Source of the DNA: an uncultured Chloroflexia bacterium
Lineage (GTDB): Bacteria; Chloroflexota; Limnocylindria; Limnocylindrales; CSP1-4
Reading direction: 5' to 3'
NCBI GenBank assembly: GCA_963728635.1
Contig: CAVSKR010000006.1
Location: 43,203 to 107,202 of the forward strand
DNA: 64,000 nt
A program made the translations under genes and the position numbers. A model generated the notes under the pieces. It worked only from the letters and a program-made list of their open reading frames with translations. It made no database searches and was not told the DNA's origin. This document shows, one piece after another, positions 608 through 50,429 of the stretch (the stretch's first letter is position 1; every line of letters begins with the position of its first letter).

Positions 608-638
608 CGATACGGTCCCGGAGGCGTAGGCTGGCGCC

Positions 639-4985: not shown

Positions 4986-5023
4986 CCGGCGGTCCTCGAC
5001 GCGTCCGCGCCTACAATCGGACG

Positions 5024-6256
5024 ATGACCCGAGATTCGAATCGTCCGCTTCGGGACGCCTGGATCGTCGAGGCCGTCCGCACGCCGATCGGGCGCTACGG
5101 CGGCGCGCTTGCGACCGTCCGACCTGACGATCTCGCCGCGCTCGTCCTGCGCGCGGTGGTCGATCGCGCGGGTGTCGACGCGGCCCTCGTCGAGGACGTC
5201 ATCCTCGGCTGTGCCAACCAGGCCGGCGAGGACAACCGCGATGTCGCCCGCATGGCGCTCCTGCTCGCCGGCTTCCCGGTCGAGGTCGGAGGGCAGACCG
5301 TCAACCGTTTGTGTGGCTCCGGGCTCCAGGCGATCAACTCGGCGGCCCATGCGGTCGCTGTCGGCGACGGCGACGTCTTCATCGGCGGCGGTGTCGAATC
5401 GATGACGCGGGCGCCGTACGTCATGGCCAAGGCCGAAGGCCCGTGGGACCGCGGACCCCGCGAGCTCCAGGACACCACTCTCGGCTGGCGGTTCGTGAAC
5501 CCGGCCCTCTCCGAGAAGCACTACCCGTATTCGATGGGCGAGACCGCCGAGAACGTGGCGGAGCGCTGGAACGTCGGTCGCGAGCGCCAGGACGCGTTCG
5601 CGCTCGAGAGCCAGCAACGCGCAGTCGCGGCGATCGAGGCGGGCCGTTTCGACGACCAGATCGTCCCGGTCGAGGCGACCGGGCGGAAGGGCGAGCTGAC
5701 CGTCGTCTCCCGCGACGAGCATCCCCGTGCCGATACGTCAGCCGAAGCACTCGCCAAGCTGCGCCCGGCGTTCCGCGGCTCGGGTGGCACGGTGACCGCC
5801 GGGAACAGCTCGGGCATCAACGACGGCGCGTCGGCGGTCCTGCTCGTGGAGGCCGAGCGGGCACGCGATCTCGGGCTGAAGCCGCTCGCCCGCGTCGTCT
5901 CGACCGCGGTGGCAGGCGTCGATCCGGCGATCATGGGCGTCGGCCCCGTGCCCGCGACACGCAAGGCGCTCGAGCGCGCCGGTCTCGGTGTCGACGATAT
6001 CGACCTCATCGAGCTCAACGAGGCGTTCGCATCGCAGTCACTCGTGTGCATCGACGAGCTGGGCCTGGACCCGGCGAAGGTCAACGTCAACGGCGGCGCG
6101 ATCGCGCTGGGGCACCCGCTGGGCATGAGCGGCGGCCGGCTGATCACGATGCTGACCCACGAGCTGCGGCGCACGGGCGGGCGTTACGGGCTCGCGACGA
6201 TGTGCATCGGCGTCGGGCAGGGCATCGCGACGATCGTGGAGCGCATCGACTCGTAA
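5024..6256 (+). CDS. paaJ: 3-oxoadipyl-CoA / acetyl-CoA C-acyltransferase (thiolase, PaaJ-like)
   Basis: 410-aa thiolase with catalytic Cys ([11 protein letters not shown]), GHPLGMSG and MCIGVGQG motifs. Confidence 0.85.
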
Positions 6257-11012: not shown

Positions 11013-11762
11013 TCAGTCGGGCGTGAGCGAACGTTCCAATGTCCCGGTCGCTCGGCGAAGCGCCAGACGCGCCCGTGCCTCCCAGCGCCCGCTCGCCCGT
11101 TCCGCCGGGGCGGCCACACCGAGGGCGGCCACGATCCCGTCGTCGCGGAGGACCGGAGCGGCCAGCGTGGTGGCCCCCGGGAAGGTCAACCCGTCGTCCT
11201 GGGCAAATCCTGCGGCGACGATCCTCGGCAGCGCTCGACGGATCGCGGCCGCCTCGACCACGTCGGCCAGCGCGGCATCGGCGACCTCCGGCGGGGCAAG
11301 CGCCAGGAGCACGAGCGCGACGGCGCCCACGTGCAGCGGGCCGGTCTGGCCCGGTTCGAGGACCACCCGCAGCGACTCGGGGGAGGGATGCTGGGCGAGA
11401 CTCGTGGCGGTGAGCCCGATCCGCCGGCTGATGAACGTCGTCTCGCCGGTCGACTCCGTCAGCTCGGCCAGGATCGGTTCAGCGGCGCGGATGAGCTCCT
11501 CCGCTGTCACGATCGGCCCCGCGCCGATCACGTGCAGCCGGGACCCGAGTCGGTAGCCGCCCTCCTGGCGCTCGACGAACCCGAACTCCGTCAGCGTGCG
11601 CAGGTATCGGTAGATCGTCGAGAGCGGGGTCTCGAGGAGCGTGCTGAGCTCATCCGCGCGGATCTCGCCCCGATCGGCGATCGTCAGGAACACGCGCAGG
11701 CCGCGCGCGAACGACGTGTCTTCGCCAGCTTCTTCGGGGGGTCGATCGAGGGCCGTGGTCAT
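11013..11762 (-). CDS. IclR family transcriptional regulator
   Basis: N-terminal wHTH (LSTIYRYLRTLTEFGFVER) and C-terminal IclR effector domain; divergent to the betaine catabolic operon. Confidence 0.85.
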   Translation of the reverse strand: MTTALDRPPEEAGEDTSFARGLRVFLTIADRGEIRADELSTLLETPLSTIYRYLRTLTEFGFVERQEGGYRLGSRLHVIGAGPIVTAEELIRAAEPILAELTESTGETTFISRRIGLTATSLAQHPSPESLRVVLEPGQTGPLHVGAVALVLLALAPPEVADAALADVVEAAAIRRALPRIVAAGFAQDDGLTFPGATTLAAPVLRDDGIVAALGVAAPAERASGRWEARARLALRRATGTLERSLTPD

Positions 11763-11809
11763 AGGGTCTCCGGGGGCCTGGGGAGCGGTCAGGGTACCGC
11801 AGCAGCGCG

Positions 11810-12958
11810 ATGACGCGGCGTCGCGGGCCGGTCGGCGATACTGCGCTCGTGAGGATCAGCGCCATCCGGCTGCAGCGGCTGCGTGTGCCGCTCGACCCAC
11901 CCTTCCCGGCGGCATGGGACCCGGTGCCGCGCACGGAGTTCCCGGTCACGGTCGTCCGCGTCGAGACCGATGAGGGCGTGACGGGCATCGGTTCGGGCGA
12001 CACGATGGATGGGTTCGAGGCATTCGAGCACCTGTTCATCGGGCAGGACCCGTTGGCGATCGCACGCCACGTCCGCGTCCTCGAGACGATCGACTTCCAT
12101 GCCGGCCGCTACTGGCCGCTCGAGGCGGCGCTGTGGGATATCGCCGGCCAGGTCGCCGGCGTCCCGGTCGCGTCGCTGTTCGGTGGTGCGAGCGATGGCC
12201 TGCCCGCCTACGCCTCGTGCGGGATGCTCCTGCCGGCGGCTCAGCGCGCCGAGTCCGCGCTGCGCCTCCGCGAAGAGGGTTTCCGCGCGCTCAAGATCCG
12301 CGTCGATCCGCGCCGACTCGAGGAGGGGCTCGCCGCGGTGACCGCGACACGAGCCGCCATCGGCGATTCGATGGCGATCATGGTCGACCTGAACCAGGGC
12401 TGGCGGATGGCCGGCGACGTCACCCCGTCGATCGACGTGACCGCCGCGCGGGAGATCGCCGCCCGGCTCGCCGATGACGGCGTGCTCTGGCTCGAGGAGC
12501 CCCTGATCGGCACGGACCTGCGGGGGCTGGCTTCACTGCGTGCGTCGGGGCTCGGCATCCGGATCGCGGGCGGGGAGATGACGCGCACCCATCACGAGGC
12601 GCTCGCCGCGCTCGAGGCGGATGCGTTCGACGTGTACCAGCAGGACGTCGTGCTTGCGGGGGGCATGCTCCGCAACCGGACGCTGGCCGAGCTCGTGCTC
12701 GCCCGCGGCCGCTGGTTCACCCCGCACACCTGGACCAACGGCCTCGGCCTGCTCGCCAATCTGCACGTGGCGGCCGGAGTCGGCGGCGGCCCGTTCATCG
12801 AATACCCGTACGACCCACCGGGCTGGACCCCGGAGCGACGCGACGCGTTCCTCGCCGAGCCCATCCGACCGGATGCCGACGGCATCCTCCATGTCCCGGT
12901 GGCGCCAGGCCTGGGCGCGGCACTCGACGACGTCTCGATCCGGAGGTACGCCGCATGA
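11810..12958 (+). CDS. enolase superfamily enzyme (mandelate racemase / muconate lactonizing enzyme family)
   Basis: Metal-ligand motifs MVDLNQGW and LEEP, capping and barrel domains; an alternative GTG start exists at 11849. Confidence 0.8.
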   Translation: MTRRRGPVGDTALVRISAIRLQRLRVPLDPPFPAAWDPVPRTEFPVTVVRVETDEGVTGIGSGDTMDGFEAFEHLFIGQDPLAIARHVRVLETIDFHAGRYWPLEAALWDIAGQVAGVPVASLFGGASDGLPAYASCGMLLPAAQRAESALRLREEGFRALKIRVDPRRLEEGLAAVTATRAAIGDSMAIMVDLNQGWRMAGDVTPSIDVTAAREIAARLADDGVLWLEEPLIGTDLRGLASLRASGLGIRIAGGEMTRTHHEALAALEADAFDVYQQDVVLAGGMLRNRTLAELVLARGRWFTPHTWTNGLGLLANLHVAAGVGGGPFIEYPYDPPGWTPERRDAFLAEPIRPDADGILHVPVAPGLGAALDDVSIRRYAA

Positions 12959-14472
12959 CAGCGACCGCACCGAGTGGGCCGACCGCGGCCGACTGGATCG
13001 CACGCGCGGACGCGGTGGAGCCGCGCAACGAGGCATTCATCGACGGCCGGTTCGTCCCAGCGGCCTCGGGCAGGACGTTCGACGACATCGCCGGTCGCGA
13101 CGGCCGTGTGATCACGCGTGTCGCGGAGGGAGGGCCCGAGGACGTCGACCGTGCGGTCGCCGCCGCGCGTCGTTCGTTCGATGATCGGCGCTGGGCCGAT
13201 ATGTCGCCGGCCAAGCGCAAGATCATCCTGCTCAAGCTCGCCGAGTCGATGCGCGCGAACAGGGAGGAGCTCGCGCTCCTCGAATCGCTCGATGTCGGCA
13301 AGCCGATCCGCGACGCCCTATCGGTCGACGTGCCGTCGTCGGCCAAGACGATCCAGTGGTTCGCCGAGACCATCGACAAGGTCTACGGCGAGGTCGGCCC
13401 GACGGGACCCGACGCGATGTCGCTCGTGACACGCGAGCCGATGGGGGTCGTCGCGGCCATCGTCCCGTGGAACTACCCCTTGATCGTGACGGCATGGAAG
13501 CTCGGCGCCGCGCTGTCCACGGGCAACTCGGTCGTGCTCAAGCCGGCCTCCGCCTCGCCCCTCACCGCGCTCCGGCTCGCGGAGCTCGCCTCGGAGGCAG
13601 GTCTGCCGGATGGCGTCCTCAATGTCGTCCCGGGACCCGGCCGGGTGCTCGGCGAGGCGCTCGCCCGCCATCCGGGCGTCGACAAGATCGCGTTCACCGG
13701 GTCGACCGAGGTCGGCCGTTCGCTGCTCCGGGCGATCGGCGAGACCGATGTCAAAGCCATCTCGCTCGAGCTCGGTGGCAAGAGCCCGCAGGTCGTGCTC
13801 GGTGATGTCGGCGACCTGGCGGCGGCAGCCACATCGATCGGCGACGGGATCTTCTACAACAGCGGCCAGACCTGCAACGCCGGCTCGCGCCTCATCGTCC
13901 ATCGGTCCGTCCGGGAGGAGCTGGTCGAGCGCGTCGCGGAGATCGGGAGCGGGATGGCTCCGGGCGAGCCGCTCGACCCGGCGACCCGCCTCGGTTCGAT
14001 CGTCGATGCCGGCCAGCTCGACAAGGTGCTCGGCTATGTCGAGCTCGGCCAGCGCGAGGGCGCGCGGCTCGTCACCGGCGGACAGCGCGTCCGCGAGGAC
14101 ACCGGCGGCTACTACGTCCCACCGACGATCCTCGACGGCGTCGACAACGGCTGGCGCGTTTCGCGCGAGGAGATCTTCGGTCCGGTCCTGACGGTCACCG
14201 AGTTCGACGACGAGGCCGAGGCGATTCGAATCGCGAACGACACGCCGTACGGTCTCGCCGCCGGCGTGTGGACGCGGGACATCACCCGCGCGCATCGGCT
14301 GGCGCGCGCGCTCCGTGCCGGGACCGTCTTCATCAACACCTTCGACACCGCGGACATCACCGTCCCGTTCGGCGGCTACAAGCAGTCGGGCTTCGGACGC
14401 GACAAGTCGCTCCACGCGCTCGATGGCTACACCCAGCTCAAGACGACCTGGATCGACCTGTCCGGTGGATGA
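12955..14472 (+). CDS. NAD(P)+ aldehyde dehydrogenase (candidate betaine-aldehyde dehydrogenase)
   Basis: ALDH motifs: catalytic Cys in GQTCNAGSR, ELGGKSP, GTVFINT, and the NAD-binding region; ATG overlaps stop of the upstream gene. Confidence 0.9.
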   Translation: MTATAPSGPTAADWIARADAVEPRNEAFIDGRFVPAASGRTFDDIAGRDGRVITRVAEGGPEDVDRAVAAARRSFDDRRWADMSPAKRKIILLKLAESMRANREELALLESLDVGKPIRDALSVDVPSSAKTIQWFAETIDKVYGEVGPTGPDAMSLVTREPMGVVAAIVPWNYPLIVTAWKLGAALSTGNSVVLKPASASPLTALRLAELASEAGLPDGVLNVVPGPGRVLGEALARHPGVDKIAFTGSTEVGRSLLRAIGETDVKAISLELGGKSPQVVLGDVGDLAAAATSIGDGIFYNSGQTCNAGSRLIVHRSVREELVERVAEIGSGMAPGEPLDPATRLGSIVDAGQLDKVLGYVELGQREGARLVTGGQRVREDTGGYYVPPTILDGVDNGWRVSREEIFGPVLTVTEFDDEAEAIRIANDTPYGLAAGVWTRDITRAHRLARALRAGTVFINTFDTADITVPFGGYKQSGFGRDKSLHALDGYTQLKTTWIDLSGG

Positions 14473-14485
14473 GGAAAAGCCACTC

Positions 14486-16051
14486 ATGACGGACATGGAC
14501 TCGGCGGCAGGCCAGGGGCTGCAGCGCCGCCGCGGCGGTGGACGCGCCGGGCACGAGCGCAGCCGCCTCCCGATGCAGCGGCCGTGGGCGCAACCGCGGA
14601 TGCGCTACAAGCCGACCGAGGTGCTGTCGGCCGACGAGATCGAGTCGATCCACCACGCCTCGCTGCGCGTCCTGTCCGAGCTCGGGATGGACTTCCTAGA
14701 CGCCGACGCGCGCGAGGCGCTGCGCGGTGCCGGGGCCGAGACGTCGCCGGATACCCAGCGCGTCCGCTTCGACCCGGACATGGTCACCGGGGCGATCAAG
14801 ACGGCGCCGTCGTCGTTCACGCTCCACGCCTGGAACCCCGAGCACGACCTGCGGCTCGGCGGCGACTGGATGGCGTTCGGGACCGTCGGCAGTCCGCCGA
14901 ACGTGTCGGACCTCGACCGGGGCCGGCGCATCGGCAACCGGGTCGATTACCAGAACCTGCTACGGCTGGGCCAGGCGCTGAACACCGTCCACTTCCTCGC
15001 CGGCTATCCGGTGGAGCCCGTGGACCTTCATCACGGCGTCCGGCATCTGCATGCGACCCACGACGCGCTGACGCTCATGGACAAGGCGATCCACTGCTAC
15101 AGCCTCGGTCGCCAGCGCAACGTCGACGTGCTGGAGATGGTCCGGATCGCGCGCGGCGTGGAGGACGCCACCCTCGATACCGAGCCGTCGGTGTTCACGG
15201 TCGTCAATTCCAGTTCCCCGCTCCGACTCGACGCCCCGATGCTCCAGGGGATCATGGCGTTCGCCGAGCGCAACCAGGTGGTGTGCATCACGCCGTTCAC
15301 GCTGGCGGGCGCCATGGCGCCGGTGACGCTCGCCGGCGCGCTGGCCGAGCAGAACGCCGAGGCGCTGGCCGGGATGGTCCTGACCCAGGTCGTCCGCCCC
15401 GGATCTCCGGTCATCTACGGGGGCTTCACCTCCAACGTCGACATGCAGTCGGGCGCGCCCGCGTTCGGGACCCCGGAGTACATGCGGACGGCCATGATCG
15501 GCGGTCAGCTGGCGCGTCGGTACGGTGTGCCGTATCGCTCGTCCAACGTGAATGCCGCGAACGCGCTCGACGCGCAGGCCGCCTACGAGTCGGTCTTCTC
15601 GTTGTGGGGCGCGATCATGGGTGGCGTCAACCTGCTCATGCACGGGGCGGGCTGGATGGAGGGCGGTCTCCACGCCGGGTACGAGAAGATGATCCTGGAC
15701 GCGGAGCTGCTGGGGATGGTCGAGGCGTTCCTCGATCCGGTCGTGGTCGACGACGCGTCGCTCGCGTTCGAGGCCATGCAGGACGTCGGCCCGGGCGGCC
15801 ACTTCTTCGGAACGGAGCACACGCAGAGCCGCTACAGGACGGCCTTCCACAGGCCGATGCTCAGCGACTGGCGTAACTTCGAGACGTGGGAGGAGGCCGG
15901 TTCCCCCGAGGTGCCGGGCAAGGCCAACCGCATCTGGAAGGAGCTGCTCGCGGCCTACGAGCCGCCGCCGATGGACCCGGCCGTCCGCGAGGAGCTCGAC
16001 GCGTTCGTCGCACGCCGGGTCGCCGAGGGTGGCGTCCCGACCGACTATTGA
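14486..16051 (+). CDS. trimethylamine methyltransferase (MttB) superfamily protein, non-pyrrolysine member (candidate quaternary-amine:corrinoid methyltransferase)
   Basis: 521-aa uninterrupted ORF with no in-frame TAG; MttB-family sequence throughout (ESIHHASLRVLSELGMDFLD...VNLLMHGAGWMEGGL); GAGGAAAAG RBS; ORF-track start 14315 overlaps the ALDH. Confidence 0.85.
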   Translation: MTDMDSAAGQGLQRRRGGGRAGHERSRLPMQRPWAQPRMRYKPTEVLSADEIESIHHASLRVLSELGMDFLDADAREALRGAGAETSPDTQRVRFDPDMVTGAIKTAPSSFTLHAWNPEHDLRLGGDWMAFGTVGSPPNVSDLDRGRRIGNRVDYQNLLRLGQALNTVHFLAGYPVEPVDLHHGVRHLHATHDALTLMDKAIHCYSLGRQRNVDVLEMVRIARGVEDATLDTEPSVFTVVNSSSPLRLDAPMLQGIMAFAERNQVVCITPFTLAGAMAPVTLAGALAEQNAEALAGMVLTQVVRPGSPVIYGGFTSNVDMQSGAPAFGTPEYMRTAMIGGQLARRYGVPYRSSNVNAANALDAQAAYESVFSLWGAIMGGVNLLMHGAGWMEGGLHAGYEKMILDAELLGMVEAFLDPVVVDDASLAFEAMQDVGPGGHFFGTEHTQSRYRTAFHRPMLSDWRNFETWEEAGSPEVPGKANRIWKELLAAYEPPPMDPAVREELDAFVARRVAEGGVPTDY

Positions 16052-16085
16052 CCCGACCGTCCCAGGGACCGCTCGAGGGGATCGC

Positions 16086-18554
16086 GTGAAGAAAGACACC
16101 CAGGTCGTCGTCATCGGTGGGGGCGTCGTCGGCGCCAGCGTCCTGTACCACCTCACGAAGGCGGGCTGGACCGACGTCCTGCTGCTCGAGCGGCGCGAAC
16201 TGACCGCCGGCTCGACGTGGCACGCCGCCGGCGGGATGCACACGCTCAACGGCGACCCGAACGTCGCACGGCTGCAGCAGTACACGATCCAGCTGTACGA
16301 GGAGATCGAGCGCCAGTCCGGGCAGGACTGCTCGATCCACCTGCCGGGTGGGCTGATGCTGGCCGACACGGAGGTCCGGATGGACTTCCTCCGGATGGCG
16401 GTCGCGCGCGGCCGCTACCTCGGCATGGACCTCGAGCTGATCACGGCCCAGGAAGCGGCCGACATGTTCCCGCTGATGGACCCGCAGTACTTCGTGGGCG
16501 CGCTGTACGACCCCGTGGAGGGGCACGTCGACCCGACCGGGGTCACGCGCGCGTACGTGAAGTGCGCCCAGATGGCGGGAGCCGAGGTCCACCAGCACAT
16601 GCCGGTGACTGCCCTCGAGCAGCGTGCCGACGGCACGTGGGACGTCCGCCTCGAGAACGGCGAGTCGATCCATACCGAGCACGTCGTCAACGCCGGCGGA
16701 CTGTGGGCGCGCGAGGTCGGCCGGATGGTCGGCGTGGAACTGCCGGTCCTCGCGATGGAGCACCACTACCTCATCACCGAGGACATGCCGGAGGTCGCGG
16801 CCCAGGTCGCCAAGACCGGTCACGAGATGCCGATGGCGCTCGACTTCGCCGGCGAGATCTACATCCGCCAGGAGGGCGGCGCGATGCTCATGGGCACGTA
16901 CGAGCAAGCGTGCGTGCCATGGTCGCCGCGCGAGACGCCGTGGGACTTCGGGTCGCAGCTGCTCAAGCCACAACTCGATCGGATCACGCCGGAGCTGTCG
17001 GTCGCGTTCAAGCACTATCCGCCGATGCACACGGTCGGCATCCGCCGTGTCGTCAACGGCCCGTTCACGTTCTCTCCGGACGGCAACCCGCTCGTCGGGC
17101 CGATCCGCGGCCTGCGTGGCTACTGGGTCGCATGTGCGGTGATGGCCGGGCTGTCGCAGGGCGGTGGCGTCGGCCTGGCGCTGGCGAACTGGATGACCGC
17201 CGGCGACGACGGCGACAGCGGGATGGATATCTGGGCGATGGACGTCGCCCGTTACGGTGACTACGCCACGCTCGGGTACACGAACGCCAAGGTCCAGGAG
17301 AACTACCGGCGCCGGTTCCGCATCACGTTCCCGAACGAAGAGCTCCCGGCCGCCCGACCACTCCTCACGACGCCGATCTACGACCGGCTGACCGCCGCGA
17401 ACGCCGTGTGGGGCGCGACCTTCGGGCTCGAACACGCCCTGTGGTTCCAGAAGGCCGGGTTGGAGCCGAAGGAGGACGTGACGTTCCGCCGCTCGAACGC
17501 GTGGGAGTGCGTGGCCGAGGAGGTCGCCGCCGTCCGCGAGCAGGTCGGCATGACCGAGATCTCGAACTATGCGAAGTACCGCGTCACCGGTCCCGGTGCC
17601 GAGTCATGGCTGTCGTCGCTGCTGACGCAGCGGATGCCCGCGCCCGGCCGGATCACGCTGACCGCGATGCTCAACGAGGGTGGCCGGATCGTCGGCGAGT
17701 TCACGGTCGCCCGAGCCTCCGGGGCCGACGAGTTCTACCTGTTCGGCTCGCTCCCGGCCGAGGTCCACCACTCGCGCTGGTTCCGCCACCATCTGCCGGC
17801 CGACGGCAGCGTCCGTTTCGAGGTCCTGGGCCTGTCGCTGACCGGCCTGTCGATCGCAGGCCCACGCGCACGCGACCTTCTGTCATCGATCGCGCCCGAC
17901 CTCGACCTCTCGACCGAGGCCTTCCCGTTCATGACGTTCCGCAAGGTGGATCTCGGGATGGTCCCGGCCATCGTCGCCCGGATCAACTACGCCGGCGACC
18001 TCGGCTACGAGCTGTGGGTGGCACCGGAGCACCAGCGAGCCCTGTTCGACAGGATCGTCGCGGCCGGCGAGGAGTTCGGGCTGCGCCTCTTCGGCATGCG
18101 CGCCCTGATGTCGCTCCGCCTCGAGAAGAGCTACGGGACGTGGTTCCGCGAATACCGCCCGATCTATACGCCGTCCGAGGCGGGGATCACCCGCTACATC
18201 AAGCTCGACCACGACTTCATCGGTCGCGCCGCGCACGAGGCCGAGCTCGCGGACGGCGGTCCGAAGCGCCGGCTCGTTGCCTTCGTCGTCGAGCCCGACC
18301 CGGACGATCCCGCCGATGTCATCGGCGACGAACCGATCTGGCACGACGGCGCGGTGGTCGGATGGGTCACGTCGGGCGGGTACCTCCATCACGTGCGGGA
18401 GTCTCTCGCGCTGGGTTATGTGCCGACCGCGCTGGCGACGCCCGAGGGTCCGGGCGGGAGCGGTTTCGAGATCGAGATCATCGGGCATCGGCGCCCGGCC
18501 CGACTCCAGCCGGAGCCGCTGTTCGATCCCAGCGGCGCAAGGATGCGCCAGTGA
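16086..18554 (+). CDS. dimethylglycine/sarcosine dehydrogenase family FAD oxidoreductase with C-terminal GcvT (aminomethyltransferase) domain
   Basis: GTG start after GAGGGG; DAO-type FAD motif VVVIGGGVVGASVLYHL; C-terminal folate-binding GcvT domain; 823 aa. Confidence 0.85.
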   Translation: MKKDTQVVVIGGGVVGASVLYHLTKAGWTDVLLLERRELTAGSTWHAAGGMHTLNGDPNVARLQQYTIQLYEEIERQSGQDCSIHLPGGLMLADTEVRMDFLRMAVARGRYLGMDLELITAQEAADMFPLMDPQYFVGALYDPVEGHVDPTGVTRAYVKCAQMAGAEVHQHMPVTALEQRADGTWDVRLENGESIHTEHVVNAGGLWAREVGRMVGVELPVLAMEHHYLITEDMPEVAAQVAKTGHEMPMALDFAGEIYIRQEGGAMLMGTYEQACVPWSPRETPWDFGSQLLKPQLDRITPELSVAFKHYPPMHTVGIRRVVNGPFTFSPDGNPLVGPIRGLRGYWVACAVMAGLSQGGGVGLALANWMTAGDDGDSGMDIWAMDVARYGDYATLGYTNAKVQENYRRRFRITFPNEELPAARPLLTTPIYDRLTAANAVWGATFGLEHALWFQKAGLEPKEDVTFRRSNAWECVAEEVAAVREQVGMTEISNYAKYRVTGPGAESWLSSLLTQRMPAPGRITLTAMLNEGGRIVGEFTVARASGADEFYLFGSLPAEVHHSRWFRHHLPADGSVRFEVLGLSLTGLSIAGPRARDLLSSIAPDLDLSTEAFPFMTFRKVDLGMVPAIVARINYAGDLGYELWVAPEHQRALFDRIVAAGEEFGLRLFGMRALMSLRLEKSYGTWFREYRPIYTPSEAGITRYIKLDHDFIGRAAHEAELADGGPKRRLVAFVVEPDPDDPADVIGDEPIWHDGAVVGWVTSGGYLHHVRESLALGYVPTALATPEGPGGSGFEIEIIGHRRPARLQPEPLFDPSGARMRQ

Positions 18555-20806
18555 CCGAGCGGTCCCCCAAGGGAGACGCGAAGGGCGCAGGGCGGATCGT
18601 CGTCGACGGGCGCCCGGTGCCGTTCGAGCCCGGCGATTCCGTCGCTATCGCGATCCTCCGGACCGGCGTGACCCCGGCCGGCGGCGGGACGCAGTGCCTG
18701 AGCGGTGACTGCGGGAACTGCCTGGCCCAGGTCGACGGGGTGGCGTACGTCCGGACCTGCCAGGTCGGCGCACGACCGGGGCTGGCCGTCGTCCGGCATC
18801 CGGCGGACGGCCTGCCGCCCCTCCCGACGATCTCCGGTGCGGACCTGTCGGCGTCGCTGTCGGGGCCCGACATCGAGGTCCTGCGCGCCGAAGTCGACGT
18901 CGCCGTGATCGGCGCGGGCGACAGTGGCCGGGAGGCGGCTGCGACCGCGGAGCGCGCCGGCAAGCGCGTCCTCGTCCTCGATGCCGCGGGAGGCGATGAG
19001 GTCGTCGGCGTCTATCCCGGTCCGATGCTGGTCGTTCGGACGCCGACGCTGATGCTCCACGTCCACGCCCAGGAGATCGTCGTCGCCACCGGCGCGGCCG
19101 AGCTCCACCCGGTCGTCCCCGGCAGCGACCTCGCGGGTATCGTGACCTCGCGCGCCGCCCAGCGATTGCACGCGGCCGGCGTGGAGATGGGCGCGGCGAT
19201 CGCCGTCGGGACGCCACCGCCGGGCGTGCCCAGCATCCCGGTGGCCGGCCAGCTCATCCGGCTCGAAGGCGACGAGCGCGGTCGCGTGCGCGCGGTCGTG
19301 ACCGCCGACGACTGGATCGGGGCCGAGACCACGACGCCCTGCGACACCGTCATCGTCGGGCTCGGCTTCGCGCCCCGCGACCTGCTCGCGCGGATGGCCG
19401 GGGAAGTGCCACTGAGCGTGGTCGGGTCGGCGGCGTTGCCGGCTGCCCTGCCCCCCGCTCCGACCAGCGGGATCGTCTGCCCCTGTTCGGGGACCACCGT
19501 CGACGACCTGCAGGCGGCCTGGGATCGCGGCTTCCAGGAGCTGGAGCTCCTCAAGCGGTCGAGCCTCGCCTGCCTCGGCACGTGCCAGGGCAGCGCGTGC
19601 CTGCCGCACGTCCGCGCGTGGATCGCGGCGCGGACCGGCGAGGTGCCGGCGCCCTTCACCGCGCGTCCCGCCTCGCGGCAGATCACGCTCGCCGAGGCTG
19701 CCGCGGACACCCAGGTCGATGTCTTCCGGCGGACGCCGCTGCACGAAGAGCACCTCGCGCTCGGCGGGCGGCTCGACCGGTTCGGGAACTGGTGGCGGCC
19801 GTGGCACTACGGCGACGCGATCGCCGAGTACTGGAGCGTCCGCGAGGGCGTGTCGGTGGGCGACGTCAGCACGCTCGGGAAGGTCGTTGTCTCTGGGCCC
19901 GACGTCGTCGAGTTCCTCGAGCGGCTGTACCCGTGCAACGTCGCCGACATCCGGCCGGGTCGCTCGCGCTACGCGCTGCTGCTCAACGAACGCGGCCACA
20001 TCATGGACGACGGGATGATCCTGCGCGAAGCGGAGACCCGGTTCGTGCTGACGTTCACGTCGGGTGGTGCGGCGAACGCCGAGATGTGGCTCCGCGACTG
20101 GGTCGACGAATGGGGGCTCCGGGTCCACGTGATGGACCGCACGATGTCCCTCGCCGCGATCAACGTCACGGGGCCGCTGGCCGGCCAGCTCCTTCGGCGC
20201 GCCGGTCTGGCCGAGCCACCGGCATTCCTCGGGCACGTCCGGGCCGACGTGGCGGGGGTCCCGTGTCACGTGATGCGGCTCTCCTTCACCGGCGAGGCAT
20301 CCTGGGAGCTGCATCACCCGGTCGATCGGTCGGTGGAGCTGTGGCGAGCGCTCCTGTCGATGGGCGAGGAATGGGGAATCCGCCCGCACGGTCTCAAGGC
20401 GCTCTTCGGCCTGCGGCTCGAGAAGGGCCACGTGATCGTGGGCATGGACACCGAGCTGGACACGACGCCGCGTCGGGTCGGGATGCCGTGGGCCGTCCGC
20501 ATGGACAAGCCGACGTTCATCGGTCGCGCGGCACTCGAAAGGACGGCGAACCAGCCCGACCATCGCCGGCTGCGCGGGTTCACGATGGAGGGTGACGCGC
20601 CCATCGAGGGCTCGCCGATCTTCGTCGACGGCGAGATCGTCGGCCACATCTCGGGCAGCTGGGCGTCACCGATCCTCGAGAAGACCGTGATGCTCGGCTG
20701 GCTCAAGCGGTTGCCGTTCGCCGAGACGGTCGAGATCGACGGTCGCGAGGCGGTCGTCACGCCGACTCCGTTCTATGACCCGGAGGGCCACCGTGCACGT
20801 GCTTAG
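18551..20806 (+). CDS. soxA: sarcosine oxidase alpha-subunit family protein (N-terminal 2Fe-2S, FAD/NAD-binding and GcvT domains)
   Basis: GTG overlapping upstream stop; N-terminal Cys cluster CLSGDCGNCLAQVDG, VAVIGAGDSG dinucleotide fold, GcvT domain at C-terminus; 751 aa is short for SoxA; 1132-aa ORF-track call is an out-of-frame upstream extension. Confidence 0.75.
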   Translation: MTERSPKGDAKGAGRIVVDGRPVPFEPGDSVAIAILRTGVTPAGGGTQCLSGDCGNCLAQVDGVAYVRTCQVGARPGLAVVRHPADGLPPLPTISGADLSASLSGPDIEVLRAEVDVAVIGAGDSGREAAATAERAGKRVLVLDAAGGDEVVGVYPGPMLVVRTPTLMLHVHAQEIVVATGAAELHPVVPGSDLAGIVTSRAAQRLHAAGVEMGAAIAVGTPPPGVPSIPVAGQLIRLEGDERGRVRAVVTADDWIGAETTTPCDTVIVGLGFAPRDLLARMAGEVPLSVVGSAALPAALPPAPTSGIVCPCSGTTVDDLQAAWDRGFQELELLKRSSLACLGTCQGSACLPHVRAWIAARTGEVPAPFTARPASRQITLAEAAADTQVDVFRRTPLHEEHLALGGRLDRFGNWWRPWHYGDAIAEYWSVREGVSVGDVSTLGKVVVSGPDVVEFLERLYPCNVADIRPGRSRYALLLNERGHIMDDGMILREAETRFVLTFTSGGAANAEMWLRDWVDEWGLRVHVMDRTMSLAAINVTGPLAGQLLRRAGLAEPPAFLGHVRADVAGVPCHVMRLSFTGEASWELHHPVDRSVELWRALLSMGEEWGIRPHGLKALFGLRLEKGHVIVGMDTELDTTPRRVGMPWAVRMDKPTFIGRAALERTANQPDHRRLRGFTMEGDAPIEGSPIFVDGEIVGHISGSWASPILEKTVMLGWLKRLPFAETVEIDGREAVVTPTPFYDPEGHRARA

Positions 20807-21209
20807 GTCGCCGGGCGTTCGGGTCGTCGCGTCGCCCGCGGCGATCGATGGCGCGGCGTGGCAGCGTGCCAACCCAGGCCCCGATGATGACTTCGAGCCG
20901 CTGATCCTGCGGTTCGCGCCTGACGAGGTCTTCGCGATCGGGGCGACCGGAGTCCGCATCGACGACCCCGACGCGATCACCGAGGCCGAGGTCGGCTACG
21001 TCGCGGTCATGTTCCCCGTGGACGAGTTCATCGACTTCGTCCTGCCCCGGATCGAATGGCCGGCGCCCGCCACGCGGCCGGCCTTCGCACAGGGCGCGAT
21101 CGCTGGGGTGCCCGCGAAGCTGTATATCGATTCGACCGGCGCGGCCACGGTCTTCGTCCTCGCCGCCTATCTCGACGACCTCCTGGCGCGTCTGCCGGTG
21201 CCGACGTGA
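20775..21209 (+). CDS. soxG: putative sarcosine oxidase gamma-subunit-like protein
   Basis: 144-aa ORF between soxA and soxB in operon position; assignment by context only; start ambiguous (ATG 20775, GTG 20793 or 20799). Confidence 0.4.
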   Translation: MTRRATVHVLRSPGVRVVASPAAIDGAAWQRANPGPDDDFEPLILRFAPDEVFAIGATGVRIDDPDAITEAEVGYVAVMFPVDEFIDFVLPRIEWPAPATRPAFAQGAIAGVPAKLYIDSTGAATVFVLAAYLDDLLARLPVPT

Positions 21210-21330
21210 CGCGGCACCCCATGCGCCGTCACCGCCGCGTTGCCGACTGCGCGTGCTCGCTCACGCACGTCGGAGTGCGATCGCTCGCATGCTCGTCGGC
21301 GCCTTGCGCTGACACCACCTGGGGAGCCGC

Positions 21331-22554
21331 GTGAGGACCGGGGTCGCCGCCGGCTACGTCGCGACGCTGCCCCACCTGCGCTGGGATGAGCCGCGCGATG
21401 CCTACGACGTGGTGATCGTCGGTGGCGGGGGGCACGGGCTGTCGACCGCGTACTACCTGGCGACCCGCCACGGCATCACGAACGTCGCCGTCCTCGAAGC
21501 CGACTACATCGCCTCGGGGAACACCGGCCGCAACACGACGATCATCCGCGCCAACTACGGCCTGCCCGAGGCGATCCGCTTCTACCAGCACTCGCTGGAG
21601 ATGTACCGCGACCTCGAGGACGAGGTCGGCGCGGCGATCCTCCACCAGACCAAGGGCATCTTCTGGCTGGCCCATACCGAGATGGCGCTGCGCACCGAAC
21701 GTGCGCGGGCGGCGATGAACACCGCCGCCGGCGCGAAGACGGTGATGGTGACGCCGGCCGAGATCAAGGAGCTCGTTCCCCAGATCGACCTGACCGGTGG
21801 GCGCCGGTATCCCGTCCTGGGTGCCTCGCATCACCTCGAGGCGGCCACCGCCCGACATGATCGTGTCGCCTGGGCCTATGCGGCGGGTGCCGCCGCACGT
21901 GGCGTCCACGTCATCCAGCACACGCCGGTGACGGGCCTCGTTCGCGACGGCGATCGCATCGTCGGCGTGGAGACGGCGCGCGGCCGGATCGCCGCTGGCA
22001 TCGTGCTGTCGGCCGTGGGCGGGCGGGTCACCGCTTTGGCGGCGCAGGCCGGGCTCAGGCTCCCGATCCGGACCCACCCGCTGCACGCCTTCGTGACCAA
22101 CGACTACGCGCAGGGTTTCGGTCCGATCGTCGCGAGCACCGAGCTCATGTGCTACGTCTCCCAGACCGAGCGAGGGCAGATGCTGATCGGCGCCGAGTTC
22201 GATGCCCAGCCCTCGTACTCCCGTCAGTCGTCGTTCGCCGCCCTGCGTGGCTACGCCCACAAGATCACGCGCATCCTGCCGTTCCTGCGCGACCTGCGGA
22301 TCCTGCGGACGTGGGCCGGCATCTGCGACATCTCGGTCGACTTCTCGCCGATCATGGGCTTCACCGGCGTCGACGGGTTCCTCGTCACGACCGGCTGGGG
22401 GACATGGGGCTTCAAGGCGATCCCCGCTGGTGGCGAAGCGATGGCCGAGCTGATCGCCACGGGCCGGACGCCGGATCTCATCGCGCCGTTCGGACTCGAT
22501 CGATTCCGTCGCGACCACGCGATGGCCGACCAGGGCTCGGCGGGGACGCGCTGA
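21331..22554 (+). CDS. soxB: sarcosine oxidase beta subunit (FAD-dependent)
   Basis: GTG after GGGGAG; FAD motif VVIVGGGGHGLSTAYYLA; DAO-family core; 407 aa. Confidence 0.85.
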   Translation: MRTGVAAGYVATLPHLRWDEPRDAYDVVIVGGGGHGLSTAYYLATRHGITNVAVLEADYIASGNTGRNTTIIRANYGLPEAIRFYQHSLEMYRDLEDEVGAAILHQTKGIFWLAHTEMALRTERARAAMNTAAGAKTVMVTPAEIKELVPQIDLTGGRRYPVLGASHHLEAATARHDRVAWAYAAGAAARGVHVIQHTPVTGLVRDGDRIVGVETARGRIAAGIVLSAVGGRVTALAAQAGLRLPIRTHPLHAFVTNDYAQGFGPIVASTELMCYVSQTERGQMLIGAEFDAQPSYSRQSSFAALRGYAHKITRILPFLRDLRILRTWAGICDISVDFSPIMGFTGVDGFLVTTGWGTWGFKAIPAGGEAMAELIATGRTPDLIAPFGLDRFRRDHAMADQGSAGTR

Positions 22555-22800
22555 ATGCTCTGGCTCGATTGCCCACGCTGCGGCCGGCGACCGCTGGAGG
22601 AGTTCACCTTCGGCGGCGAACGTCGCCAGGTGCCGGACTCGATCACCGACCCGGCCGACCGCGACTTCGACGATGTCTGGATCTTCGAGAACCCCGATGG
22701 CCCCTCGACCGAGCGCTGGTTCCACGCCCACGGATGCCGGCGCTGGCTGACCGTCCGGCGGGACACGAGCGTCGACCAGGTGCTCGAGATCCTGCCGTGA
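22555..22800 (+). CDS. soxD: sarcosine oxidase delta subunit
   Basis: 81-aa protein with zinc-ribbon CPRCG...HAHGC; ATG immediately after soxB stop. Confidence 0.8.
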   Translation: MLWLDCPRCGRRPLEEFTFGGERRQVPDSITDPADRDFDDVWIFENPDGPSTERWFHAHGCRRWLTVRRDTSVDQVLEILP

Positions 22801-22820
22801 CGGGCCTGGCCGACCGCGAA

Positions 22821-23984
22821 ATGGAGATCACGCTGCGCAATCGCGTCCTTTTCGGGGTGGGCGCCGTGCGACGACTCCCCGAGCTGGTCGCCGCGGTCGG
22901 TGGCACGCGGGTCTTCCTCGTGACCGATCCTGGCGTCTTCACTGCCGGCCTGGCCGGCGAGGCACTGGACGTGCTGTCAGACGCCTCGGTCCCGACGACG
23001 ATGTTCAGCGCGGTCGAGGCGAACCCATCCGGCTCCACCGTCGAGCTCGGCGCTGAGGCGCTCCGAACCGTCGGCCTCGATAGGACCGTGATCGTGGCCC
23101 TCGGCGGCGGATCGGCCATGGACGCGGCCAAGGGTATGGCGCTGTGCGCGGCCAACGATCGACCGGTGTGGGAGCTCGAGTACGACGGGCCGGACCTCTC
23201 GCCAGGGGTCCCGATCATCGCGATCCCGACCACGGCGGGGACCGGTTCCGAGGCCCACCCGTTCGCGGTCATCACCCACGAGGAGATCGGACGCAAGGAC
23301 TACATCGGCCACCGGTCGCTGCTGCCGGTCGCGACGATCCTCGATCCGGCCCTGACCGTCGGGTTGCCGGCCGGGATGACCGCCGCGTCCGGCGTCGACG
23401 CACTGACCCACTCCCTGGAATCGCTGCTCTCGCGGAACGGCAACCCGTTCGCCGAGGCGACCGCCCTCGGCGTCATCCGGACCGTGGTCGAGTGGCTGCC
23501 GCTGGCCGTCGCGGACGGCACGGACCTCGAGGCGCGCTCGCAGATGCTCATGGCCGCCCACCTTGCCGGCGTCGGGCAGGCGAGCGGGACGGGCGTCGGT
23601 CTGGTTCATGCCCTCGGGCACGCGCTCGGCACTCGGGGTCGGCTGGCCCATGGGACGGCCCTCGCCGTGGTGCTGCCGGAAGTGCTCGAGTTCTACGCTG
23701 CGGAATCCGGCCTGCGGGATCGCGAGCTCGCCCTCGTCGGTGTCGCGATCCGAGCCGCCAGCCCGACCGAGCAGCCCGCGACGGCCGCGGGTGCAGCGAT
23801 CGGCGAGCTCCGTCGGTTCCTGGCCGGGGTCGGGCAGCGCCACCGCCTGACCGCGCTTGGCTTCGACGACGCGGCCCTCGACGTCGTCGCTCAGGACGCC
23901 ATCGATGACGCCGCGATCCGGAACTCGCCCCGTTTGCCGACTCTGATCCAGGCCCGAACGGTGCTCGCCTCCGTCACGGGCTGA
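22821..23984 (+). CDS. iron-containing (group III) alcohol dehydrogenase, candidate choline dehydrogenase analogue
   Basis: Fe-ADH motifs GGGSAMDAAK and metal-binding His residues; an alternative GTG at 22797 overlaps soxD stop. Confidence 0.85.
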   Translation: MEITLRNRVLFGVGAVRRLPELVAAVGGTRVFLVTDPGVFTAGLAGEALDVLSDASVPTTMFSAVEANPSGSTVELGAEALRTVGLDRTVIVALGGGSAMDAAKGMALCAANDRPVWELEYDGPDLSPGVPIIAIPTTAGTGSEAHPFAVITHEEIGRKDYIGHRSLLPVATILDPALTVGLPAGMTAASGVDALTHSLESLLSRNGNPFAEATALGVIRTVVEWLPLAVADGTDLEARSQMLMAAHLAGVGQASGTGVGLVHALGHALGTRGRLAHGTALAVVLPEVLEFYAAESGLRDRELALVGVAIRAASPTEQPATAAGAAIGELRRFLAGVGQRHRLTALGFDDAALDVVAQDAIDDAAIRNSPRLPTLIQARTVLASVTG

Positions 23985-27272: not shown

Positions 27273-29000
27273 ATGCGCCGCTGGAGCGAGCTGGCCGAGC
27301 GCGTGGCGGCAACGACCCGGACCTCCGAGAAGACCGCCCTGCTGGCCGACTACCTGCGCAGCCTGGGCCCCGACGAGCTGCCGATCGCGGCCGTCTTCCT
27401 CACCGGCCGGCCGTTCCCCGAAGCGGACCAGCGGGCCACGGGGCTCGGGTGGTCGTCGATCGTGGCGGCGGTCGGGGCACTCACCGGGGCGTCACGCGAG
27501 GACCTGGCCGAGGCGTACGACCGTCACTCCGACCTGGGCCTCTCGGTCGAGGACGTGCTCACGCGGGCCGGTCACACCCCGCCGCCGGAGGTAAGCCCGA
27601 CGCTCCCTGATGTGGCGGCTGCGTTCGCGGCGATCGAGATCGCGTCGGGGCCGGCGGCCAAGGCGCAGCTGTTGCACGCCCTCCTCGTCCGAGCCGACCC
27701 CCGAACGGCAAAGGCCATCGTGAAGGTGCTCGGCGGCGAGCTCCGCATCGGGTTGCGGGAAGGCCTCGTGGAGGCCGCCATCGCAAAGGCCTTCGACCGT
27801 CCGATCGAGGACGTGAAATGGGCGGGCATGCTGACCGGCGACATGGGCCGGCTGGCCGCGCTCGCACGCGACGACGAGCTCGGCGACGCGGAGCTCGCGC
27901 TCTTCCACCCCCTCAAGTTCATGCTCGCCTCGCCGGCGGAGGACGCGGACGAGATCATCGGCCGGCTGGGGCCCGAGGTCTGGGTCGAGGACAAGTACGA
28001 CGGCATCCGCGCCCAGCTCCACAAGCGCGGTTCGGACGTGCGCCTCTATTCACGCGACCTCCATGACGTGAGCAACCAGTTCCCCGAGATCGTCGAAGCC
28101 GCCCGGCCCCTGCGCTGGACTGGCGTGATCGACGGCGAGATCCTCGCCTACAAGGACGGGTTCGTCTTGCCGTTCATCAGCCTCCAGGCGCGCCTTGGAC
28201 GGAAGACCCCGTCAGATCAGATCAAGAGCGACATCCCGGTGGTCTACGTGGCCTTCGACCTGCTCGCCCTCAGCCCGGGTGACGACCCGGACGGCGACAG
28301 CACCGTCGATCCTCTGCTGCGCGAGCCGCTCCGGAGACGCCGGGAAAGGCTGGACCGGATCGACCTGCCGCTGGTCGAGGACGGAGGGCGCTTCACCCGA
28401 TCGCACCTCGCCGTGGCCCGCGACGCCGACGCGCTCGAAGTGGCGTTCGCCGACGCGCGTGGCCGGCGCAACGAGGGTCTGATGGTCAAGGACCCCACGA
28501 GCGGCTATTCACCGGGGCGGCGCGGGCTCGGCTGGCTGAAGATGAAGAAGGCGCTCGCGACGATCGATTGCGTCGTCGTCGGCGTGGAGGTCGGTCACGG
28601 CAAGCGCCACGGCGTGCTGTCCGACTACACGTTCGCAGTCCGCGACGAGGAGACCGGCAAGCTCGTCAACATCGGCAAGGCTTACAGCGGGCTGACCGAC
28701 GCGGAGATCGCCGAGATGACGGAGTGGTTCGAGGCGCACACGATCGCCCGGTTCGGCCGCTACCGCCAGGTCGAGCCGACCGTTGTCGTCGAGATCGCCT
28801 TCGATGTCATCGTGCGCAGCAAGCGGCACGGATCCGGGTTCAGCCTCCGATTCCCGCGGATCCACGCGCTGCGACGCGACAAGAACGTCGACGAGATCGA
28901 CACGGTCGCGACCGTGACGGCGCTGTACGAGGGTCTCCAGCACGGGTCGGAGCTGCTGGTGACGGCCGGTGCCCGCACCGTGCCCCCGGAGCCCGTCTGA
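27273..29000 (+). CDS. ATP-dependent DNA ligase
   Basis: Adenylation motif I KYDGIR plus downstream nucleotidyltransferase and OB-fold motifs; 575 aa. Confidence 0.85.
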   Translation: MRRWSELAERVAATTRTSEKTALLADYLRSLGPDELPIAAVFLTGRPFPEADQRATGLGWSSIVAAVGALTGASREDLAEAYDRHSDLGLSVEDVLTRAGHTPPPEVSPTLPDVAAAFAAIEIASGPAAKAQLLHALLVRADPRTAKAIVKVLGGELRIGLREGLVEAAIAKAFDRPIEDVKWAGMLTGDMGRLAALARDDELGDAELALFHPLKFMLASPAEDADEIIGRLGPEVWVEDKYDGIRAQLHKRGSDVRLYSRDLHDVSNQFPEIVEAARPLRWTGVIDGEILAYKDGFVLPFISLQARLGRKTPSDQIKSDIPVVYVAFDLLALSPGDDPDGDSTVDPLLREPLRRRRERLDRIDLPLVEDGGRFTRSHLAVARDADALEVAFADARGRRNEGLMVKDPTSGYSPGRRGLGWLKMKKALATIDCVVVGVEVGHGKRHGVLSDYTFAVRDEETGKLVNIGKAYSGLTDAEIAEMTEWFEAHTIARFGRYRQVEPTVVVEIAFDVIVRSKRHGSGFSLRFPRIHALRRDKNVDEIDTVATVTALYEGLQHGSELLVTAGARTVPPEPV

Positions 29001-29037
29001 CCGCGCCGCGACGACGGTCGCCGCGTATCCTTGATGA

Positions 29038-29619
29038 ATGTTCGACGCGCTCGGGGGGATGCCTGCCCAGCAAGTCCGTCTCACCCTCTACACGGACTCG
29101 TTCGTCATCCACGGTTCGCTGACGACCCGCCAGCGGCGCGTGACCGACATGCTCAACCTGGCCGAGGACCGGTTCCTCGTCCTCTCCGACGTGGCGACCG
29201 ACGAGTTCGGCACCCGCGGCGAATCGATCCGAGCCGAGTTCGCCCAGGTCAACCTCGCCTCGGTCCTCTTCGCGGTCGTCAACGAGCCGGTCGAACCCGC
29301 GCCGGAGCTGCGCACGCCGAAGATCCCGGAAGAGGCCCTGATCTCGGTGCCACCCTTCAAGGTCACCGGGTTCATCCACCTCATGCCGGAACGCAGCCTG
29401 CGCGACGCACTGTCGGAGCTGACCGGGCACTTCCTGCCGGTGACCGGCGCGACCTACTGGTCCGACGTCCTGAGCGAGGCCCGCACGACCGCCGAGCTGC
29501 TCGCCGTCAACCACGAGCGCGCCCAGATCCTCGCGCCGCACCGCGAGACGGACCCGTGGGTGGGCCTGGACCAGACCACGCCGCGACCCGAGCCGCCGCC
29601 GGAACCGACCGGCTGGTAG
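29038..29619 (+). CDS. hypothetical protein
   Basis: 193-aa ORF with ATG start and high GC3; no recognisable domain. Confidence 0.5.
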   Translation: MFDALGGMPAQQVRLTLYTDSFVIHGSLTTRQRRVTDMLNLAEDRFLVLSDVATDEFGTRGESIRAEFAQVNLASVLFAVVNEPVEPAPELRTPKIPEEALISVPPFKVTGFIHLMPERSLRDALSELTGHFLPVTGATYWSDVLSEARTTAELLAVNHERAQILAPHRETDPWVGLDQTTPRPEPPPEPTGW

Positions 29620-50427: not shown

Positions 50428-50429
50428 CG

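Follow-up and report, generated by a model that had tools for sequence, protein, structure and literature searches.

The window analysed here is a stretch of 64,000 nucleotides with a G+C content of 70% from an uncultured Chloroflexia bacterium of the lineage Limnocylindria (contig CAVSKR010000006.1, positions 43,203 to 107,202 of the forward strand), and the system in question is a gene cluster at 11013-23984, built around a methyltransferase gene of the MttB superfamily. Pfam and NCBIfam scans gave a map of ten genes, with a co-directional block on the forward strand (11810-23984) and a divergent gene for an IclR-family transcriptional regulator on the reverse strand (11013-11762; HTH_IclR and IclR_C domains). 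This arrangement had been described in an earlier interpretation made from the letters alone (the sequence-only reading), and the domain scans confirmed it. The block begins with a gene for an enolase-superfamily protein of the mandelate racemase/muconate lactonizing type (11810-12958; MR_MLE_C 161 bits, and MR_MLE_N), at the place where the earlier interpretation had put an iron-containing alcohol dehydrogenase (Fe-ADH) and made no mention of an enolase. Then follow the genes for an NAD(P)-dependent aldehyde dehydrogenase (ALDH; 12955-14472; Aldedh 559 bits), the MttB-superfamily methyltransferase (14486-16051), a flavoprotein of the DMGDH/SARDH type with a fused tetrahydrofolate (THF)-binding GcvT domain (16086-18554), a sarcosine-oxidase alpha-like (SoxA-like) subunit (18551-20806), a small conserved protein, orf144 (20793-21209), a beta-type FAD subunit (SoxB; 21331-22554), a delta-type subunit (SoxD; 22555-22800) and the Fe-ADH (22797-23984; Fe-ADH and ADH_Fe_C domains). 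The Fe-ADH and ALDH genes are thus both present, as had been claimed, but they do not form a block of their own, since the Fe-ADH gene is the last of the operon.

Several of these genes are joined by 4-nt overlaps of start and stop codons, namely enolase/ALDH (ATGA), DMGDH/SoxA (GTGA) and SoxD/Fe-ADH (GTGA), and the soxD start abuts the soxB stop with zero gap. Between the ALDH and MttB genes there is a 13-nt gap when translation starts at 14486 (521 aa), or an 8-nt overlap with the alternative GTG start at 14465 (528 aa); public MttB homologues have been called at both lengths. The spacing from MttB to DMGDH is 34 nt, taking the likely start 16086 in an open reading frame (ORF) that opens at 16029, and that from orf144, whose ORF opens at 20775, to soxB is 121 nt. 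The translational coupling proposed earlier for the ALDH, MttB, DMGDH and soxA genes therefore stands at the DMGDH/SoxA junction, fails at the MttB/DMGDH junction, and depends on the choice of start between ALDH and MttB. For the enolase gene the probable start is GTG 11849, and its relatives were called at 369 aa. The gene boundaries match independent calls on near-identical public contigs. No cobalamin riboswitch was found in the window, and a search for promoters and terminators gave no match. Between the gamma-like gene orf144 and soxB there is a 108-nt insertion (21215-21322), absent in the close relatives L081, L002 and L004 and present as one copy in the window, which folds as a long imperfect hairpin (-67.3 kcal/mol, z -1.97).

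The central gene encodes a non-pyrrolysine MttB-superfamily methyltransferase, predicted to be of the quaternary amine:corrinoid type. Its product matched PF06253 with 647 bits over profile positions 1-500 of 500, and the ORF (14315-16051) is uninterrupted, indicating that it has no amber/pyrrolysine codon. The TIGR02369 model for pyrrolysine-containing MttB reached 312 bits against a cut-off of 525. The earlier assignment of 14486-16051 to the non-pyrrolysine MttB family was thus borne out, and the full-length match, together with the invariant Arg and His described below, speaks against a non-methyltransferase TIM-barrel protein at this position. Among solved relatives, the S. meliloti protein 4YYC scored 349 bits, Desulfitobacterium hafniense MtgB (2QNE/9YCE) 338 bits at ~37% identity, and MttB 7XCL 161 bits. 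An N-terminal extension of ~40 aa is shared with 4YYC, unlike D. hafniense MtgB. In public data, the closest homologue was 95% identical and came from a 'Candidatus Limnocylindrales' metagenome-assembled genome (MAG); some thirty other Chloroflexota MAGs followed at 76-94%, and the next relatives were from Acidimicrobiia and Ilumatobacteraceae at 64-77%. Exact-sequence look-up of the 521-aa and 528-aa forms found neither on record.

Conservation of the cluster was assessed in 80 related loci, one genome per species (33 Chloroflexota-type and 47 Actinomycetota-type), in which genes were called and then clustered. A DMGDH-type gene lies directly after the MttB orthologue in 62 of the 63 loci with enough flank, and genes for Sox alpha, the small ORF, beta and delta follow in 18/18 Chloroflexota-type and 8/26 Actinomycetota-type loci. 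The MttB-DMGDH arrangement is far beyond chance, and the cluster recognised in the sequence-only reading is real. In 28 loci the small ORF separates the alpha gene from the beta gene; an IclR gene occupies the same position in 13 related loci, and an enolase gene is linked to MttB in 35 loci (25/33 Chloroflexota-type and 10/47 Actinomycetota-type), in three arrangements. In six Limnocylindria relatives, an OpuA-type betaine ABC transporter set, consisting of OpuAC (PF04069), an ATPase with a CBS domain and two permeases, is located between the IclR gene and the operon. Of the Actinomycetota-type loci, 16 have genes for electron-transfer flavoprotein (ETF) close by, which fits a dehydrogenase of the DMGDH type. 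Between Chloroflexota and Actinomycetota, orthologues share 65-83% identity, which argues for one conserved function across the two phyla. Given the conserved DMGDH/Sox neighbours, the OpuA transporter in relatives and the ETF genes, the cluster is a conserved quaternary-amine catabolic island.

The related loci also differ from the window in their gene content. In many Limnocylindria relatives (L006, L010-L014, L020, L034, L082 and L083), an ORF of 139 aa that matches no Pfam family is inserted, together with an ABC1 atypical kinase gene, between ALDH and MttB, and the window is without this insert. In L021 (3452-4915), and also in loci of the L017/L018 type, the IclR gene and the OpuA transporter are separated by a gene of the PF00221 aromatic-amino-acid-lyase family; the PF00221 family takes in ergothionase and histidine ammonia-lyase.

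Downstream of MttB, Pfam domains confirmed the DMGDH-type FAD/GcvT gene and the sarcosine-oxidase A, B and D genes that had been named before. The DMGDH-like protein (DAO, FAO_M, GCV_T and GCV_T_C domains) aligned over its full length with human and rat dimethylglycine dehydrogenase (551 and 540 bits, respectively; residues 5-814 for the human match), and scored 297 bits with Arthrobacter DMGO. The FAD, FAO_M and GcvT architecture is the same as in the mammalian enzymes (5L46 and 4P9S) and in DMGO (1PJ5), although the protein could equally be of the sarcosine-dehydrogenase type or demethylate some other N-methyl amino acid.

The oxidase genes are more divergent. The SoxA-like protein (751 aa) has Fer2_4, SO_alpha_A3, GCV_T and GCV_T_C domains, and its residues 316-748 (C-terminal 435) alone align with positions 491-962 of canonical SoxA; TIGR01372 gave 278 bits against a cut-off of 1164. 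The protein is ~215 residues below the canonical length, with the N-terminal Fer2_4 kept and the nucleotide-binding region reduced to a remnant. SoxB matched DAO with 212 bits and TIGR01373 with 403 bits (cut-off 529), and SoxD matched PF04267 with 78.6 bits (cut-off 27) and TIGR01374 with 68.7 bits (cut-off 116.5). A G subunit had been listed in brackets by the sequence-only reading, and here the evidence was divided. By sequence, orf144 gave no match to SoxG with Pfam (16 members, E <=10), with a PDB profile or with hhalign against the GcvT domain, and its relatives are its own family only, ~470 'hypothetical proteins'. An AlphaFold2 model from a 25-sequence alignment, however, reached a pLDDT of 82.6 (a single-sequence model, at 49.7, was unusable), and its best Foldseek matches in the PDB were the sarcosine oxidase gamma chains 2GAG_C and 1VRQ_C (E 2e-4, TM 0.50), with GcvT folds next. 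On this predicted fold, orf144 looks like a SoxG of reduced length whose sequence no longer reveals the relationship. The oxidase thus appears to be a divergent alpha-gamma-beta-delta sarcosine-oxidase relative with the gene order A-G-B-D. Compared with SoxBDAG (2GAG and 1VRQ), the beta and delta subunits, the GcvT half of alpha and the gamma-like fold are all found in the window, whereas the gene order is different, alpha has 751 instead of ~965 aa with a reduced N-terminal half, the gamma-like protein has ~138 instead of ~190 aa, and all subunits score below the NCBIfam subfamily cut-offs.

The two dehydrogenases could be placed at the family level only. The nearest NCBIfam models of the ALDH were PuuC (607 bits) and betaine aldehyde dehydrogenase (BADH; TIGR01804, 511 bits against a cut-off of 669), both below their cut-offs, and a designation as BADH was rejected, with PuuC scoring higher. 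For the Fe-ADH, models of ErcA, lactaldehyde reductase, 4-hydroxybutyrate dehydrogenase and GbsB all gave ~220-235 bits, far below their cut-offs. Its earlier label 'GbsB-like' was dropped as an assignment (NF053866, 222 bits against a cut-off of 550); by sequence comparison, this label and BADH can serve only as family-level labels.

The first gene of the block encodes an enolase-superfamily protein whose best solved relative is 4GGB (E 6.5e-30); among solved structures it stands nearest to acid-sugar cycloisomerases and dehydratases and to mandelate racemase. We aligned 29 family members with mandelate racemase (its sequence was validated by reproducing the search score and coordinates). The Asp/Glu/Glu metal ligands and the His-Asp dyad are conserved across the 29 members, K-x-R replaces K-x-K, and the family has a specific insertion with an invariant Trp. 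In L021 the enolase gene overlaps MttB directly by 4 nt and the ALDH gene is absent; L078 has two tandem enolase copies. HpbD, the hydroxyproline/proline betaine epimerase-racemase, is likewise an enolase-superfamily enzyme in a betaine catabolic cluster, and it has catalytic Lys residues at beta-strands 2 and 6 (PMC3950512). Identity with HpbD was rejected, as the window protein has Asp at beta-6, His at beta-7 and K-x-R at beta-2 instead of the two Lys of HpbD, whose structures were not among its 60 best solved relatives. No paper connecting such an enolase with MttB came up in a literature search.

The substrate pocket of the methyltransferase was then compared with that of D. hafniense MtgB, in which four residues contact glycine betaine: Y97 and F356 by cation-pi interaction, and R312 and H348 at the carboxylate (structure-function work of 2026, PMC13080624). 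R312 is common to the carnitine, proline betaine, butyrobetaine and phosphocholine enzymes, and the aromatic pair is specific to MtgB (PMC13080624). Pocket positions were mapped first on the HMMER alignment and afterwards in 90 sequences aligned with MAFFT. In the latter, every one of the 80 orthologues has the Arg and His equivalent to R312 and H348, the Y97 equivalent is A, G or S in 80/80 (G in the window protein), and the F356 equivalent is G in 80/80, the window protein included. Y97 is kept in S. meliloti 4YYC and in eight paralogues of the same loci that are 38-41% identical; these include paralogues inside the corrinoid operon described below and others beside an OYE/StcD/DgcA-like flavoprotein. 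Since the Arg and His are kept and both aromatics are replaced, the window protein is predicted to bind a carboxylated quaternary amine in a pocket unlike that of the characterised glycine betaine enzyme. A conserved Trp three residues past the His might stand in for the lost aromatics. Two loci, L043 (9209-18956) and L052 (9008-18835), carry two parallel modules each, with the orthologue MttB and DMGDH beside a Y97-paralogue MttB, an OYE/StcD/DgcA-like flavoprotein and a TetR gene, which suggests that two different quaternary amines are handled side by side.

Genes for B12-binding, pterin-binding, RACo, DUF1638 and MtrH-type proteins were searched for by Pfam scans of all called genes at 1-46.3 kb and by six-frame phmmer of the whole 64 kb, and none was found in the window. 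The lack of a corrinoid partner, stated earlier for 20 kb, therefore holds for the whole 64 kb. The B12 probe was the E. coli MetH B12 domain (identical to 1BMT), which picks up MttC, MtaC, MtmC and the Desulfitobacterium corrinoid protein at E 1e-20 to 1e-27; in the six-frame search it had no match in the window and found corrinoid proteins in three related loci. Corrinoid-module genes lie within 10 kb of the orthologue in 0/33 Chloroflexota-type loci, versus 9/47 Actinomycetota-type loci with such genes beside it. In one of the latter, from an Acidimicrobiales MAG (L057), the same MttB-DMGDH-SoxA-small ORF-SoxB-SoxD core as in the window is accompanied by a divergent operon 130-245 bp upstream of MttB, encoding a corrinoid protein (PF02310 and PF02607), a DUF1638 protein, a methyltransferase with PF00809 (Pterin_bind) and an MTHFR-like protein. 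L062, L073 and L074 have this type of module plus a RACo-type activase, a PF13769 protein and a paralogous MttB, and in L035 genes for a PF02574 homocysteine S-methyltransferase, RACo, PF13769 and DUF1638 proteins follow soxD. Module fragments stand at the locus edges of L039, L042 and L058. The module-bearing orthologous clusters are in Acidimicrobiia, with MttB proteins 65-77% identical to that of the window.

Because these orthologous clusters adjoin a full corrinoid module, the methyl acceptor of the window enzyme is expected to be a corrinoid protein encoded in trans, and not THF directly. The sequence-only reading had left the acceptor open, a position overtaken by the corrinoid protein, Pterin_bind methyltransferase and RACo genes beside the Acidimicrobiia orthologues. 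It had also considered what a canonical corrinoid pair in the same operon would mean for its scheme; such pairs adjoin orthologous loci and were not seen here. For Limnocylindria, corrinoid partners encoded in trans are by far the most likely arrangement. A 2024 survey names Limnocylindria, with no detail, among the lineages with corrinoid methyltransferase genes (PMC11264602), and one Limnocylindria relative (L024) has genes for a formate-THF ligase and a weak MTHFR-like fragment upstream. When the contigs of the 120 best MtgC matches (down to ~80% identity) were compared with those of the 120 best MttB/orf144 matches, none was shared, though this comparison is underpowered.

Taken together, we consider it probable that the cluster is an IclR-controlled operon whose products remove, one after another, the N-methyl groups of a carboxylated quaternary amine (glycine betaine being the most likely one), and that the corrinoid partners are encoded elsewhere. 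Choline could possibly be fed in through the Fe-ADH and ALDH. In the first step, as homology and the orthologous loci suggest, the MttB-family enzyme would hold the betaine via its Arg/His pair and pass a methyl group to the Co(I) of an MtgC-type corrinoid protein. This protein, a pterin-binding methyl-cobalamin:THF methyltransferase, a RACo/RamA-type activase and a DUF1638 protein would have their genes at other places in the genome, as they do in Ruegeria pomeroyi. In the second step, judging from domain architecture and closeness to mammalian DMGDH, the DMGDH-type flavoprotein would take off the second methyl group as 5,10-methylene-THF. In the third, the alpha-gamma-beta-delta sarcosine-oxidase-type enzyme would presumably take off the last methyl group, with glycine, or the amino acid that matches the substrate, as the product. 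The reactions would follow one another in the order in which the MttB, DMGDH and Sox genes are arranged.

As for the substrate, we regard glycine betaine as roughly twice as likely as another betaine. The 551-bit match to human DMGDH, three demethylases in pathway order, and an Fe-ADH and ALDH that could serve for choline are in its favour. Still, the substrate may be another betaine, because the MtgB aromatic pair is missing in 80/80 orthologues and the linked enolase is without a pathway role. Of the earlier proposal, a quaternary-amine operon with an MttB enzyme followed by flavoprotein demethylases stands, but a route from choline or glycine betaine to glycine is not established, the aromatic pair being missing. 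Several further observations weigh against the proposed operon function. Glycine betaine catabolism offers no role for the conserved enolase partner; the window has no betaine transporter; the ALDH, the Fe-ADH and all Sox subunits fall below the NCBIfam equivalog/subfamily cut-offs; and, besides the missing corrinoid genes in the window and near the 33 Chloroflexota-type orthologues, a 2018 survey of freshwater Chloroflexi MAGs, which are incomplete, reported no cobalamin synthesis or Btu transport genes (PMC6169038).

Part of this evidence would fit a different substrate under the same corrinoid logic, a tentative alternative in which the operon acts on another carboxylated quaternary amine. 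The candidates are betaines with a chiral centre or a hydroxyl group, such as proline betaine, carnitine, beta-alanine betaine or an alpha-substituted amino-acid betaine; the enolase would racemise, epimerise or dehydrate the substrate or an intermediate, and the DMGDH-like and Sox-like enzymes would act on N,N-dimethyl and N-methyl amino acids. The pocket agrees with this, with small residues in place of Y97 and F356 in every orthologue, Y97 retained in the paralogues and in 4YYC, and R312 shared with the other betaine enzymes that lack the MtgB-specific aromatic pair. So do the enolase linkage in 35 loci and three arrangements, including the 4-nt overlap with MttB in L021, the family-specific enolase insertion with its invariant Trp, the divergent Sox subunits, and the parallel MttB-plus-flavoprotein modules of L043 and L052, which imply two different substrates. 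However, the DMGDH-like protein is far nearer to true DMGDH than to anything else solved, three successive demethylases suit a trimethyl compound that ends as glycine, and the enolase, with Asp at beta-6 and His at beta-7, is not of the HpbD type and has acid-sugar dehydratases and cycloisomerases as its nearest relatives.

It is improbable, in our judgement, that the Limnocylindria MttB works without a dedicated corrinoid protein and passes its methyl group to THF (for example on the GcvT-domain neighbours), to free cobalamin or to some other acceptor. If true, it would be the first member of the MttB superfamily independent of a corrinoid protein, with the dedicated corrinoid protein lost or never present in Limnocylindria, and only then would the cluster represent a new kind of chemistry. 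The contrast of 0/33 with 9/47 loci and the freshwater MAGs without genes for cobalamin synthesis or uptake (PMC6169038) would be in line with it, as would ~13 long Limnocylindria contigs (0.2-3.1 Mb), none of them among the best 120 MtgC matches, a very weak point with an identity floor of ~80%. But a corrinoid is the methyl acceptor of all MttB-superfamily enzymes characterised so far (PMC13080624, PMC12478193), partners encoded apart are, by published work, the rule in Ruegeria, and the 65-77%-identical orthologues in the same MttB-DMGDH-Sox context adjoin a complete corrinoid module; the formate-THF ligase and weak MTHFR-like fragment of L024 are as expected if methyl-THF is made. That the genes are merely adjacent without a single pathway, or that the MttB homologue is non-catalytic or an unrelated TIM-barrel protein, is very improbable, with the adjacency kept in two phyla (62/63 loci), overlapping start and stop codons joining several genes, and a full-length MttB match with an invariant substrate-binding Arg and His.

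The window also carries genes outside the cluster. Upstream, at 134-6256, lies a phenylacetate catabolic set (PaaA/B/C/D, enoyl-CoA hydratase, 3-hydroxyacyl-CoA dehydrogenase and thiolase), which is unrelated to the cluster. Elsewhere are genes for an ATP-dependent DNA ligase followed by a DUF6812 protein (27273-29619), a 1087-aa AAA/TPR/LuxR regulator (36275-39538) and the PntAB transhydrogenase (48985-52027), and tRNA genes at 32648-32720 and 63745-63818.

Among known systems, the MtgB-MtgC-MtgA system of D. hafniense (Ticak et al. 2014, as cited in PMC12478193) shares with the window a non-pyrrolysine MttB-family TIM barrel in which R312 and H348 are kept, whereas Y97 and F356 are replaced in the window protein. 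Unlike the window, it belongs to an anaerobe in which the partners are encoded side by side and no oxidative demethylases act downstream. The Eubacterium limosum enzymes MtpB, MtcB, MtyB and MthB, which act on proline betaine, carnitine, gamma-butyrobetaine and phosphocholine, as described in PMC13080624, resemble the window protein in keeping R312 and lacking the MtgB aromatic pair. They differ from it in coming from anaerobic acetogens with adjacent corrinoid proteins, a comparison made by description only.

The closest parallel is the MtgBCD(E) system of Ruegeria pomeroyi and Phaeobacter inhibens, a split cobalamin-dependent glycine betaine demethylase/methionine synthase (Mausz et al. 2025, PMC12478193). 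In the aerobe Ruegeria pomeroyi, two betaine-induced PF06253 proteins are encoded apart from mtgC and mtgD, and in other marine bacteria genes for the later demethylations often adjoin mtgBCD (PMC12478193). As in the window, the PF06253 gene has no mtgC or mtgD beside it, and the later demethylations are assigned to dimethylglycine and sarcosine enzymes. The Acidimicrobiia module matches the Ruegeria MtgC/MtgD/MtgE/RamA/DUF1638/MetF2 set domain for domain, so that the same accessory set (PF02310, PF00809, PF02574, RamA/RACo, DUF1638 and a MetF paralogue) lies beside the Acidimicrobiia orthologues. The window differs in its origin from Chloroflexota of a soil/freshwater setting, in the placement of MttB in one operon with the DMGDH and Sox genes, in an MttB clade without the Tyr97 equivalent and in the added enolase-superfamily gene; genes of the MtgC and MtgD type lie beside the Acidimicrobiia orthologues and are only presumed in this genome.

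The combination of a cobalamin-dependent first demethylation with oxidative later steps, which the sequence-only reading had taken to be novel, was already shown for aerobic Ruegeria pomeroyi in 2025 (PMC12478193). Because the Acidimicrobiia modules match the published MtgBCD(E) system, the claims of novelty and of an open methyl acceptor both fall. The cluster instead adds a new, lineage-specific member to the aerobic betaine demethylation systems that depend on cobalamin. The comparison delimits an MttB clade with 80 orthologues at the species level and thousands of homologues in metagenomes, marked by an altered pocket and an unexplained enolase partner. Aerobic cobalamin-dependent quaternary-amine demethylation is thereby extended from marine Proteobacteria to Limnocylindria and Acidimicrobiia/Ilumatobacteraceae, abundant soil and freshwater lineages, and this wider reach of the pathway implies a B12 demand for osmolyte turnover in soil and freshwater habitats.

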